IMG/VR virus record: IMGVR_UViG_3300045988_024551
Location: 1-11,946 of that record
Direction: 5' to 3' (one strand)
Source of the DNA: a virus
DNA length: 11,946 nucleotides
Below, one piece after another: positions 736 through 11,946 of this stretch. The position numbers and the translations under genes are program-made. Each line of letters opens with the position of its first letter. Position 1 is the stretch's first letter. The notes under the pieces are model-generated. The model had not been told where the DNA came from. It saw only the letters and a program-made list of their open reading frames with translations, and did not search any database.

Positions 736-939
736 ATGGAATATTCATATTTTAGAATCACATTGAAACAAACCGACAAAGTTACGGTTTTTATGGTACG
801 TTCTGATAAAGTAAGTGAGTTCTTTAATAACAAGATTGATTATTTACAGGGCGATTGCTCAATAACAGTTAAAGGGCGTTTTTCAACGCACAAAGATTCT
901 CGCAAATGGTTTATTGTTACACCAACAGAAAATAAATGA
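736..939 (+). CDS. Hypothetical protein, 67 aa
   Basis: ORF whose stop overlaps the next start in an ATGA junction at 936-939, suggesting translational coupling. Confidence 0.55.
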   Translation: MEYSYFRITLKQTDKVTVFMVRSDKVSEFFNNKIDYLQGDCSITVKGRFSTHKDSRKWFIVTPTENK

Positions 940-1370
940 GTGATATGAAAAAGATTAAGTATTTTAAATTGTCTGAGTTCATCAACTCAGCAACGGCGCA
1001 ACGTCTAAAAATAGACAATATGCCATCGTTTGAAATTGTGGATAACTTGAATCGTTTAGCCGATTATTTAGACGGTATTCGCGAAAAGTTAGGTAAACCG
1101 ATTCTAGTTTCTAGTGGCTACCGATGTCCGTTGTTAAATAAGGCGGTCGGGGGTGTTGTTAACAGTCAACACCAAAAAGGTTTAGCGGCTGATTTGGTTT
1201 GTGCTGATATGACAAAACTTGAATCGGTTCTCAGAGAAACAGGCGGTTTTGACCAACTTATTAAAGAACACCGCAAAGGTTTTCCGAATTCGTTTTGGTT
1301 TCACGTTTCAGTTTGCCCACGTAATGGTAAACCACGCAACCAAATTATAATTAATTTGGAAAAGAAATAG
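936..1370 (+). CDS. Peptidase M15 family (zinc D,D-/L,D-peptidase type) endolysin, 144 aa
   Basis: SGYRCPLLNKAVGGVVNSQHQKGLAADL followed by FWFHVSV gives the H-x6-D...H zinc-ligand pattern of Peptidase_M15-type phage endolysins. No signal peptide or TM segment is evident. Confidence 0.85.
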   Translation: MSDMKKIKYFKLSEFINSATAQRLKIDNMPSFEIVDNLNRLADYLDGIREKLGKPILVSSGYRCPLLNKAVGGVVNSQHQKGLAADLVCADMTKLESVLRETGGFDQLIKEHRKGFPNSFWFHVSVCPRNGKPRNQIIINLEKK

Positions 1371-3222: not shown

Positions 3223-3666
3223 TTAAACATTTCCTTTTATTGTTACCATAATAATGCTACCGTCTTCACTCAATAACTCTTTATTCGGAAAATCAAGTTT
3301 TCTGATATTAGGGCGTGAATCGAAAACGTTTGAACGGTTTGAAAGATACTCGTTAACATTTTCGCCCTTTGTAAGCGTTCCCGTACTATTCAAAATAATA
3401 TCCTTATAAGTTAATAAAACGTCAACACGCAAACGAACTGTGCAAATATCACCGTCTTGTTGCTTTTCTGAAACGAAATAATAACGGTTCAAACTTTCGA
3501 TATAAACGTAATTAAACGTAACAGGCGTGCGAGTTCTGAAACGTACAACAGGCGTTAACACATTAAATGTAGCATTCAACACGCCTGTATATTCTTCGTT
3601 TGTCTGTAGCGTTTTGTTTACTTCGTTTGGTTTGCCGTTGTAAACAAATGTTTTGATTTTAACCAT
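3223..3666 (-). CDS. Small tail/neck protein, 147 aa, from the internal ATG at 3666 (the ORF track extends to 3705)
   Basis: The upstream 13 codons of the tracked ORF lie inside the terminator hairpin 3685-3720, so the ATG at 3664-3666 (MVKIKTFVYNG...) is preferred. NYVYIESLNRYYFVSEKQQDGDICTVRLRVDVLLTY resembles the N-terminal ...YIMFQN...WFYAFVTELE...VHFEIDVLQTW block of the phi29 gp9 tail knob (recalled, not searched). Confidence 0.55.
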   Translation of the reverse strand: MVKIKTFVYNGKPNEVNKTLQTNEEYTGVLNATFNVLTPVVRFRTRTPVTFNYVYIESLNRYYFVSEKQQDGDICTVRLRVDVLLTYKDIILNSTGTLTKGENVNEYLSNRSNVFDSRPNIRKLDFPNKELLSEDGSIIMVTIKGNV

Positions 3667-3671
3667 ACCGC

Positions 3672-3720
3672 TAAAAATTAAAAGGGGGCATTCCTGTGCT
3701 ATCAACTACAGGAACACCCC
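3672..3720 (-). terminator. Intrinsic terminator immediately after the major capsid gene
   Basis: In the minus-strand RNA, GGGGUGUUCCUGU / ACAGGAAUGCCCC forms a 13-bp stem (two G-U pairs) with a 10-nt loop, followed by CUUUUAAUUUUU. Confidence 0.75.
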
Positions 3721-4942: not shown

Positions 4943-5512
4943 TTAATAAATATCTACTGTTAACTCTTTTGCAAGTTCTGTAATAACTTGCGTTTTGAAA
5001 TTAGTTTTGCGTAAACTCATTTCTTTTTGAATAATTTCACTAACAGGAACACTAGACGGCAAACCGTTCTTAATACTTGTTTTCGTGCCCGTTTCTTGTC
5101 GGTTTCCTGTTGATTCTCGTTGTTGCTTGGCATCATTTCCGAAATCTCCATTATTAAACGTTGTACTTGAATCGACTGTATTATTATTTCCTGTTTCGTC
5201 AACGGTATTACTAGTTGTTTCCGTTGTCTTTGACGTTACAGGGTTTAACACGTCATATTCTTTATTAAACACTTGAATTTGTTTTTGCCATTCGTCAAAC
5301 TTCACCGTAATAATACTTTTAACAATATCGTTTGCAGTTTCGTTTGTTACGGCATCAACAAGAATTTTGTTTCCATATTTGAAACGAAAATCAATATCTA
5401 TTATTTTCGGGTCATCTTCCCCGAAAATTGATTTGTACAAAACAGGAAACAGGGGCGCAAAGATTTTTTCAAACAAACCATTTTCACCCGTGAAAAGTTC
5501 GTTAATTTTCAT
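4943..5512 (-). CDS. Head or neck assembly protein, 190 aa (scaffold or lower-collar candidate by position), called from the ATG at 5512
   Basis: The ATG at 5510-5512 overlaps the portal 3' end (GAAAATGAAAATTAA) in the coupled-gene style used elsewhere here. It lies between the portal and the MCP. It has a T/N/S-rich central region and an amphipathic C-terminus. The ORF remains open upstream to 5728 through the repeat (see findings). Confidence 0.55.
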   Translation of the reverse strand: MKINELFTGENGLFEKIFAPLFPVLYKSIFGEDDPKIIDIDFRFKYGNKILVDAVTNETANDIVKSIITVKFDEWQKQIQVFNKEYDVLNPVTSKTTETTSNTVDETGNNNTVDSSTTFNNGDFGNDAKQQRESTGNRQETGTKTSIKNGLPSSVPVSEIIQKEMSLRKTNFKTQVITELAKELTVDIY

Positions 5513-6560
5513 TTTCTTCTTTGTTTTCTTTTGTTTCTTCTGTTTCTTCTGTTTCTGTTTCCGTTTCTTCTGTTTCTTCTGTTTCTGTTTCCGTTTCTTC
5601 TGTTTCTTCTGTTTCTTGCGTTTCGTCCGTTTCGTCCGTTTCGTTTGTAGGGTCAACGTCTTCTGTATCTGTGTGGTCGTGCCCGTCTTCTGATACTTTA
5701 AGCAACGATAAATAGTTTTCGTGCTCAATTTTCCAACTAGACCCCAACGTTACCGTAATATCCGTGCCAAACATTTCGTTAACACGTTTAACACCCTCAA
5801 CACGTTCCGTTAACATTGAATCAACAAACGGCATTAAAGCATCTATATTCATCGAAACTTCTTGCGTGTTCAAACGTTCACGTTTCATGTTATAATTTGC
5901 GTTCAAACCCAAATCGTTAAACATTGACGCTTTGTAATACTGCAAAAGTTCAATCATTTGCGTTATTTGTTGGTTACTTTGTGTTGGTGGTGTTTGCATA
6001 TTTACACCTTTGAAAAACGCATTTTCACCAACCACCGAGAAATCACCGTCCAAAATCTTTTGCAGGAACGATTCTGCACTTTGTCGGGTCTTATCATCAC
6101 TTGCAGAAATAAGCATTGTTATTCTAGTTAAAATACTAGTCATATTCAGCGTTATAACTGCATCGGTGTAAAGTACGCCATATTTCCCGATAATTGGCAA
6201 AATTGAATCTGCAAACGGTGTGTTGTTGATAACTACAATATCATCACCAATTTTGAAAGTTTTATCCAACTTTAACCACGGGTTTGCGACAACGAAATCT
6301 TTGCCCCGATAATACGCATCACATTCACCGCCACGTGAACCCTGTAAGGCGTACAAATCACCGTTAACTTTGGCGATTCCAACGTTACCGCTAGTTTGCA
6401 GAATCTTTTCAAGTTCTACAGGCGGCATTGTTTCGGGTGTTCCTGTATATTCAAACATTTTTGAAGTCATACAAAGAACACGTTGCATAAAAGTATTTAA
6501 TGCGTAATCTTTGTTCTTAACTTCTGTTTGATACAGGGCATATAAATTTTCTTTTTTCAT
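5502..6560 (-). CDS. Portal (connector, upper collar) protein, phi29 gp10-like, 352 aa, with a ~55-aa poly-acidic E/T/D repeat tail
   Basis: [26 protein letters not shown] parallels gp10 [37 protein letters not shown] parallels [35 protein letters not shown] parallels [24 protein letters not shown]. The C-terminus is ...[47 protein letters not shown]. Confidence 0.9.
   Translation of the reverse strand: [352 protein letters not shown]
5533..5646. repeat. In-frame tandem repeat: 30-bp unit GTTTCTTCTGTTTCTTCTGTTTCTGTTTCC x2 exact plus a partial third copy, built from 9-bp GTTTCTTCT-like subunits and decaying into GTTTCGTCC units
   Basis: 5533-5562 is identical to 5563-5592, and 5593-5616 repeats the first 24 nt. 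Degenerate 9-mers continue to 5646. All unit lengths are multiples of 3. Confidence 0.9.
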
Positions 6561-11706: not shown

Positions 11707-11786
11707 GTTCCACGTGAAACACTTTGCTGCTATTCGCCCTTTGTTCCACGTGAAACATTTGTTATCCACCGTTCCACGTGAAACAT
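11707..11786. promoter_or_regulatory. Three copies of the CACGTG-core site at the right end: two are ITR mirror copies and one extra copy straddles the ITR boundary
   Basis: GTTCCACGTGAAACA occurs at 11707-11722 (extra copy, absent on the left), 11743-11758 and 11771-11786. Confidence 0.45.
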
Positions 11787-11946
11787 TATTTTTATGAAAG
11801 TTTAACAGTATTAACGGTGTGTTAAATGTGTTAAAGTGTGTTAACAATGACGGTACAAGCGACACAGCAAAAAGCGTGCCAAAGTGTGTTAGCAAGTGTT
11901 AAAAGATAGTTGGGAAATGTTAAATCTGCGTGTCTAGTGTACCTTT
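11719..11946. repeat. Right inverted terminal repeat (ITR-R), 228 bp
   Basis: Reverse complement of 1..228 with no mismatch. The window ends ...GTGTACCTTT. Confidence 0.95.

Follow-up and report, generated by a model that had tools for sequence, protein, structure and literature searches.

The question raised by this locus is whether the repeat tract at the end of a viral portal gene codes in one reading frame or in two. We analyzed the whole stretch of 11,946 nucleotides (nt) from IMG/VR record IMGVR_UViG_3300045988_024551, hereafter the window, in which the portal gene lies on the minus strand and overlaps the start of the next gene, designated X (Table 1). The portal is a member of PF05352 (Phage_connector; Pfam score of 48.7 bits with a threshold of 25.6 bits, residues 18-272), matches PHROG 2038, "upper collar connector" (E 1e-37), is 36-60% identical to the portals of Astrithrvirus-group isolates, and ends in a Glu/Thr-rich tail. 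According to the original prediction, the repeat tract encodes this acidic carboxyl terminus, and translation and Tandem Repeats Finder agree on this point; the latter also places the perfect 30-bp repeat within a looser array of period 9 (5525-5642). Read one nucleotide further downstream, i.e., in the +1 frame, the same letters were said to encode a basic sequence that runs into the next gene without a stop. This was likewise found to be so: the mechanical open reading frame (ORF) 4943-5728 comprises 261 amino acids (aa), and its upstream part reads ...TKRTKRTKRKKQKKQKKRKQKQKKQKKRKQKQKKQKKQKKTKKK-MKINELF... Some details had to be corrected, namely the start codon at 5728, which is TTG and not ATG; the length of the downstream protein, which is 189 aa and not 190 aa; and the first triplet of the tail, which is NET and not DET.

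Three readings had been offered for this arrangement. In the first, which the original prediction itself judged the most parsimonious, X is initiated at ATG 5512 and the repeat leaves the other frame open as a side effect; in the second, a longer form of X starts upstream; in the third, a frameshift fuses the portal to X. Both composition and the relatives strongly support the side-effect reading. We are highly confident that the slippage-prone GAA/ACR repeat is there as the acidic portal tail, that the portal frame is the sole functional frame with the +1 frame as its by-product, and that X starts at ATG 5512. The open +1 frame is a non-functional compositional artefact.

The composition of the tract explains why the frame is open. 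The coding strand is devoid of T at 5512-5648, and elsewhere in the genome no T-free run exceeds 37 nt (base-run analysis). Since every stop codon needs a T, and its complement an A, all six frames are stop-free there. The +1 frame is thus open across the tract, as predicted, yet not uniquely so: the third sense frame, which reads RNGRNGRNARNRRN..., is open as well, and so are all three antisense frames (e.g., the plus-strand ORFs 5367-5693 and 5521-5715). The same stretch cannot hold an ATG, GTG or TTG in a sense frame until the ATG whose T is position 5511. A stop in the +1 frame requires a T at the second position of a portal codon, i.e., a codon for Phe, Leu, Ile, Met or Val. The tail residues Glu, Thr, Asp, Gln, Lys and Asn have no T at this position; therefore, a +1 stop is impossible under any choice of codons. 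When the 47-residue tail was back-translated 20,000 times with the codon usage of the genome, the +1 frame was open in 100% of the cases. The charge of the alternative product can be accounted for in the same manner. In the +1 frame, GAA plus a following G or A gives AAG or AAA (Lys), whereas ACA or ACG before a G gives CAG or CGG (Gln or Arg). Thus, GAA/ACR shifted by one base is AAR/CRG, and a Glu/Thr tract is necessarily rich in Lys, Gln and Arg. The charge-complementary acidic and basic arms that had been proposed, together with the automatic co-variation of their lengths, are a property of the genetic code and not an evolved feature.

Codon usage in the tails is strongly biased compared to the portal body. 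Thr is encoded by ACA or ACG in 97% of the cases in tails versus 69% in the body, Glu by GAA in 97% versus 81% (GAG, 3% versus 19%), and Gln by CAA in 99% versus 54% (CAG, 1% versus 46%). An exchange between ACA and ACG is silent for Thr in the portal frame, but the +1 frame then has Arg in place of Gln or vice versa. The scarcity of ACT and ACC was considered as a sign of selection for a basic +1 product; this was rejected, because GAG and CAG are equally depleted. Both of these codons would give Arg in the +1 frame, so that the bias points to homogeneity and amplification of the repeat rather than to selection for a basic product.

A scan of IMG/VR recovered 285 related loci, of which the best 80 (L001-L080) were analyzed together with the window, i.e., 81 genomes. 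The portals of the 80 are 88-98% identical over residues 1 to approximately 305. Nearly all of these 80 loci fall under dataset identifier 3300045988, and the clade is very abundant. The tail is Glu/Thr-rich and acidic in all 81 genomes. Its length is another matter: portals range from 336 to 411 aa, and the part beyond the DVDP anchor from 32 to 107 aa, with 20 distinct lengths. The expectation that the repeat copy number varies was thereby borne out, and the difference in tail length between portals that remain so similar points to rapid turnover of the repeat in related populations.

The +1 frame is not maintained in the same genomes. A TAA shuts it precisely at the upstream edge of the tract in 73 of the 81, where it is formed by a Val codon (GTA) and a codon starting with A in the context ...DVDP-V-T/K/N... 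Four further genomes (L017, L034, L036 and L058) carry a stop within the tract, e.g., a TAG that results from Ile ATA and a subsequent G, and in L036 just 10 open codons are left. In all, 77 of 81 close genomes have a +1 stop at or within the tract, and the frame is open beyond its edge in only four, including the window. The window portal (DVDP-TN) is without the Val codon found in most relatives, and its 72-codon extension exists because this one codon, which together with the following A yields TAA in relatives, is missing. The ATG of X is invariant in close relatives, with an overlap of 11 or 14 nt between X and the portal stop. Conversely, no conserved in-frame start codon was found upstream of it. 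Since a start codon cannot arise in the T-free tract, the interval from the last stop to the conserved ATG is free of ATG, GTG and TTG in 44 of 81 genomes; in the remaining genomes, an upstream ATG arises from Asn-Glu (AAT GAA) and is scattered over 10-59 codons upstream. The window itself offers a TTG alone, 72 codons upstream.

Comparison with more distant relatives extends this picture. In six cultured phages the portal tail has 71-140 aa and is acidic (20-38 Asp plus Glu versus 3-14 Lys plus Arg), X lies in the +1 frame in Phanie, Entb_47 and DU_PP_III and in the +2 frame in astrithr, Vibrio K58 g2 and Shigella SHGBLB0004, and 3-28 open codons precede it. A second scan with the family alignment yielded 80 more diverse loci. 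The tails of all complete portals in this set are polyacidic, and many of them are built from unrelated short repeats, i.e., PEPEPE, EPVEDV, DDEIV, EPTNED, EPEPEQV and TDGNDTE. Codons for Val, Ile or Leu, with their potential to produce +1 stops, occur in several of these repeats. Here X has an offset of 0, 1 or 2 relative to the portal frame, and distant relatives as a whole show 0-30 (mostly 0-15) open codons ahead of X. Even in the clades that carry the same ETE (ETEETE) repeats as the window (L153-L166), X is in the +2 frame, and in L154-L166 the overlap is ATGA with one open codon upstream of X. The acidic tail is always kept while the frame of X varies, which argues that the selected feature is the tail in the portal frame. 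The link of the Lys-rich frame to X is an accident of one clade, and the acidic low-complexity tail seems to have been regenerated repeatedly rather than inherited as sequence. As judged from sequence comparison, dual coding is not supported: the alternative frame is not kept in relatives, and its openness is forced by the primary frame.

Some further observations on the tails should be mentioned. Independent clades have (PE)n, (EPVEDV)n, (DDEIV)n and (EPEPEQV)n tails (L084, which is Vibrio phage K58 g2, L095, L107, L128 and others). The portals of cultured Astrithrvirus-group phages (L081-L086) and of many of the loci L087-L129 carry a GERGQ motif in the middle of the tail. Most cultured and many metagenomic portals end in a conserved helix-loop-helix-like segment, ELQAIIDDPESSDEDKQAARELL (ELQAIIDDPESSDEDKQAARELLxEL), which looks like a docking motif. 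The clade of the window has neither the GERGQ motif nor the terminal segment. Neither AD70P2, the nearest relative of the Gram-positive type (portal of 305 aa), nor the uncultured gut relative MT836125 (304 aa) has the polyacidic tail.

The identity of X bears on what the two frames could do. Its homologues in 36 diverse genomes measure 174-195 aa, and their alignment begins at one shared N-terminal Met. Searches with X against Pfam, PHROG and PDB sequences gave no match. An AlphaFold2 model of X (mean predicted local distance difference test score, pLDDT, 59) contains helices in residues 1-87, an unmodelled polar part (88-154) and a C-terminal helix (157-184); a Foldseek search with this model of moderate confidence returned nothing significant and no PDB match. 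Comparison of the X family to phi29 gp11 by hhalign was not significant (E 0.025 at 1.9% probability), and neither were the hhalign comparisons to phi29 gp7, the scaffold, and to the protein encoded downstream of the portal in AD70P2. In X, W75 is followed by NKEYDVLNP, and the protein ends in ...ELTVDIY; gp11 has N-terminal helices with W...LIKYDPLEN, a long middle rich in Thr, Ser, Asn and Asp, and a C-terminal helix ending in ...ELFMLVY. The 303-aa protein encoded downstream of the portal in the gut phage MT836125 bridges the two, with a gp11-like LLKYEPIEN and an X-like end, ...LIAICIY. The position of X, directly downstream of the connector gene and overlapping it, is collinear with that of gp11. 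Phages of this group have a shortened lower collar, according to HHpred and AlphaFold analyses (PMC11476376). By elimination, X is probably this shortened lower-collar (phi29 gp11-like) protein.

In phi29 connector structures, the carboxyl terminus of the portal lies at the wide end, inside the capsid. The tail of the window portal, strongly acidic and presumably disordered, would accordingly reach into the interior of the capsid from the portal's wide end, bringing approximately -360 charges per dodecamer (-30 per subunit). Its low complexity, free variation in length and sequence, and constant acidity argue for a disordered region selected for charge. Replication slippage would change its length, and the tail would act by charge and length rather than by sequence, as a polyanionic brush that repels or organizes packaged DNA; alternatively, it could engage basic partners during assembly. 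A scaffold-like role is conceivable. It should be noted that no scaffolding gene was recognizable in the window by Pfam or PHROG, and that computation of charges found no strongly basic structural protein encoded in the genome. A more specific proposal is that the tail is a portal-tethered module with its length tuned by slippage, serving, for example, as a scaffold substitute or assembly nucleator, or as a DNA-mimicking brush that would control DNA or the terminal protein where the channel opens inward; we regard this proposal as doubtful. Compensation for capsid volume, with tail length traded off against genome length, was considered and rejected: tail length showed no correlation with the length of the rest of the genome (Spearman 0.16, p = 0.30, 41 complete genomes). 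A polyacidic portal tail was present in every Astrithrvirus-like mini-phage examined.

Several points weigh against the reading in which only the portal frame is functional. Within the clade of the window X is always in the +1 frame, with its 11- or 14-nt overlap. Given the amino acid sequence, an open +1 frame over the 29 codons that precede the tract is expected in only approximately 3% of the cases; this upstream openness is inherited clade-wide, and one conserved stop interrupts it in 76 of 81 genomes. In some relatives gene callers chose upstream in-frame ATGs, resulting in products of 199-206 aa; such database entries (e.g., P0009, P0013 and P0021) are probably mis-called starts with a spurious poly-Lys N-terminus. 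Rare frameshift or read-in products may occur. Finally, the function of the tail is a best guess, namely that it may form a polyanionic brush inside the capsid, at the channel's inner mouth.

The two dual-coding readings can be judged against the same data. A longer isoform of X, initiated at TTG 5728 and extended N-terminally by a basic arm of 72 aa as a partner for the acidic tail, would be consistent with the frame being open from this TTG in the window and with the upstream ATGs and long gene calls just mentioned. We consider it exceedingly improbable, since the TAA at the tract edge closes the frame in most close genomes, the T-free tract bars starts, those found elsewhere are scattered, distant relatives have few open codons, and the N-terminus of X is kept at the same Met throughout the family. 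Moreover, X as a lower collar would be bound to the narrow, external end of the portal, so that a basic arm on X could not meet the internal acidic tail. The same topology makes a portal-X fusion awkward, because a probable external tail-tube protein would be placed on the internal end of the portal. Such a fusion, through a poly-Lys linker, would result from a +1 (or -2) frameshift within the purine repeat, either programmed or caused by the repeat; in the window the +1 frame is open from any point of the tract to X, the constant frame of X in the clade would fit, and recoding in viral acidic repeats (herpesvirus LANA1 and EBNA1) was reportedly described by Kwun and colleagues in 2014. By-eye inspection of 5512-5650 revealed no recognized +1 signal (a slippery codon with a stop or rare codon, prfB-like), no upstream Shine-Dalgarno-like element, and no run of A longer than 4-5, as compared to at least 8-9 expected for transcriptional slippage; the genes of the window give no sign of Shine-Dalgarno usage. 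The four close genomes with stops inside the tract, the sister clades with ETE repeats and X in the +2 frame, and other relatives with X in frame 0 or +2 also argue against a frameshift, which we consider very improbable. Low-level +1 recoding that yields poly-Lys-X products in the clade of the window alone is in our view highly unlikely, too. Thus, both dual-coding options of the original prediction fail the comparative check that it had itself put forward, given the stops at or inside the tract, the absence of upstream starts in 44 genomes and the occurrence of X in any frame across the family.

Another explanation assigns a role to the nucleic acid itself, i.e., the A-rich polypurine tract would be a leader for Shine-Dalgarno-independent initiation or re-initiation of X, or a polypurine/polypyrimidine DNA element. 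Within 35 nt upstream of all 15 candidate starts in the window no Shine-Dalgarno motif was found, and A/T-rich sequence is present there instead; the 35 nt before the ATG of X are nearly pure A/G, and the tail codons favor A-ending forms above the genome average. However, this codon bias is expected from repeat amplification alone, and relatives with PE, EPVEDV or DDEIV repeats have no such tract. We therefore regard a nucleic-acid role as unlikely. The reading in which the repeat serves the acidic portal tail and X starts at ATG 5512 is the one adopted in what follows.

The perfect 228-bp inverted terminal repeats at 1-228 and 11719-11946 indicate that the window is a complete linear phage genome (11,946 bp). 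Within each terminal repeat, a unit of 9-10 bp, TTAACACAC, occurs approximately three times in tandem (103-130 and 11817-11844); these units could be candidate binding sites near the replication origin. The polymerase, packaging ATPase and major capsid protein genes, identified by their Pfam families, share one operon with the portal gene (Table 1).

Table 1. Features of the window discussed in the text.
Feature	Coordinates	Strand	Details
Portal / upper collar connector	5502-6560	-	352 aa
Polyacidic low-complexity C-terminal portal tail	5505-5705	-	residues ~286-352, net charge -30
Perfect 30-bp tandem repeat	5533-5616	-	2.8 copies, 100% identity, score 168 (Tandem Repeats Finder)
T-free polypurine-rich coding-strand stretch (A-free on plus strand)	5512-5648	-	137 nt
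Gene X	4943-5512	-	189 aa, ATG 5512, 11-nt overlap with portal stop (ATGAAAATTAA)
Open +1 frame upstream of X start	5513-5728	-	72 codons from TTG 5728
Terminal-protein-position product		-	220 aa
Protein-primed family-B DNA polymerase		-	PF03175 (DNA_pol_B_2)
phi29 gp16-type packaging ATPase		-	PF05894
Holin-like protein		-	64 aa
phi29-type major capsid protein		-	PF25622 (Phi29_MCP)
Two further structural proteins		-	
Peptidase_M15_3 (endolysin-type) gene	936-1370	+	E 3.7e-19; among small ORFs, strand opposite structural operon

A megablast search of the whole window against GenBank phages produced no match and thus no close DNA relative. The major capsid protein is 56-58% identical to those of the Astrithrvirus group, and the gene order is that of astrithr and Phanie. 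The window is akin to this group and stands outside the genus itself: genus-level nucleotide similarity was not found, and the capsid protein is just 58% identical to that of Astrithrvirus astrithr. The Astrithrvirus-like group has been described as phi29-like phages of 11-14 kb with Gram-negative hosts (PMC11476376). The lack of Shine-Dalgarno motifs in the window suggests a host with Shine-Dalgarno-independent initiation, e.g., a member of the Bacteroidota, which would differ from the hosts of the isolates. The enterobacterial Astrithrvirus isolates differ in this respect; for example, AAGGA precedes gp07 of astrithr. In astrithr and Phanie the endolysin gene is on the same strand as the tail genes and follows them. 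A probably spurious ORF of 118 aa on the minus strand (1351-1707) overlaps two plus-strand genes, 936-1370 and 1373-1621. For the 160-aa gene downstream of the capsid gene (3223-3705, minus strand), the listed TTG start may be too far upstream.

A parallel to the coding question is found in the herpesvirus proteins LANA1 from Kaposi's sarcoma-associated herpesvirus and EBNA1 from Epstein-Barr virus, in which, as in the window, a purine-rich repeat encodes an acidic region and the alternative frame is long, open and differently charged. In those cases, the alternative-frame proteins have reportedly been detected experimentally. For the window such a product is hypothetical, stops break the frame in most relatives, and its connection to X is not conserved. 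These results suggest a general source of false dual-coding signals. Any low-complexity tail rich in Glu, Thr, Asp and Lys yields a stop-free +1 frame, in which GAA-rich acidic repeats read as Lys-rich and charge-complementary; if the next gene happens to be in the +1 frame, a long spurious ORF results, and the same effect leads to mis-called N-terminal extensions.

The window portal belongs to the gp10 family (PF05352) of phi29, in which gp11 directly follows gp10 with an overlap of 8 nt. Like gp11, X has a helical N-terminal part, the motif W...YDxLxN, a polar middle rich in Thr, Ser and Asn, and a C-terminal helix ending in ...(I/V)Y; it is shorter (189 aa versus 293 aa), and the similarity between the two is not statistically significant. 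The phi29 gp10 has 309 aa and a short, mildly acidic end of approximately 15 residues, ...IENVSRGTSDGETNE; the tail of the window portal is far longer, as the original prediction had also claimed.

The nearest known relatives are the phages of the Astrithrvirus group (Salmonella astrithr, Astrid and assan, Acinetobacter Phanie, Pectobacterium DU_PP_III, Enterobacter Entb_47 and Vibrio K58 g2). Like the window, they have linear genomes of approximately 11-12 kb with inverted terminal repeats and a long acidic portal tail, and the gene order is common to both: terminal protein, PolB, gp16 ATPase, small holin-like protein, portal, X, capsid and two-part tail knob. The window differs from these isolates in the frame and overlap of X, and its clade has ETE tandem repeats, whereas the tails of the isolates are mostly non-repetitive. 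The portal tail is not mentioned in the review PMC11476376, in which the word "acidic" does not occur. The uncultured phi29-like clade of approximately 12 kb (285 IMG/VR loci) and the whole Astrithrvirus-like group share a long, hypervariable, polyanionic portal tail, which in the genome of the window amounts to approximately 360 extra negative charges per virion, presumably inside a very small capsid. The slippage-driven polyacidic portal tail is a real feature that the window has in common with the known phages of the Astrithrvirus group.

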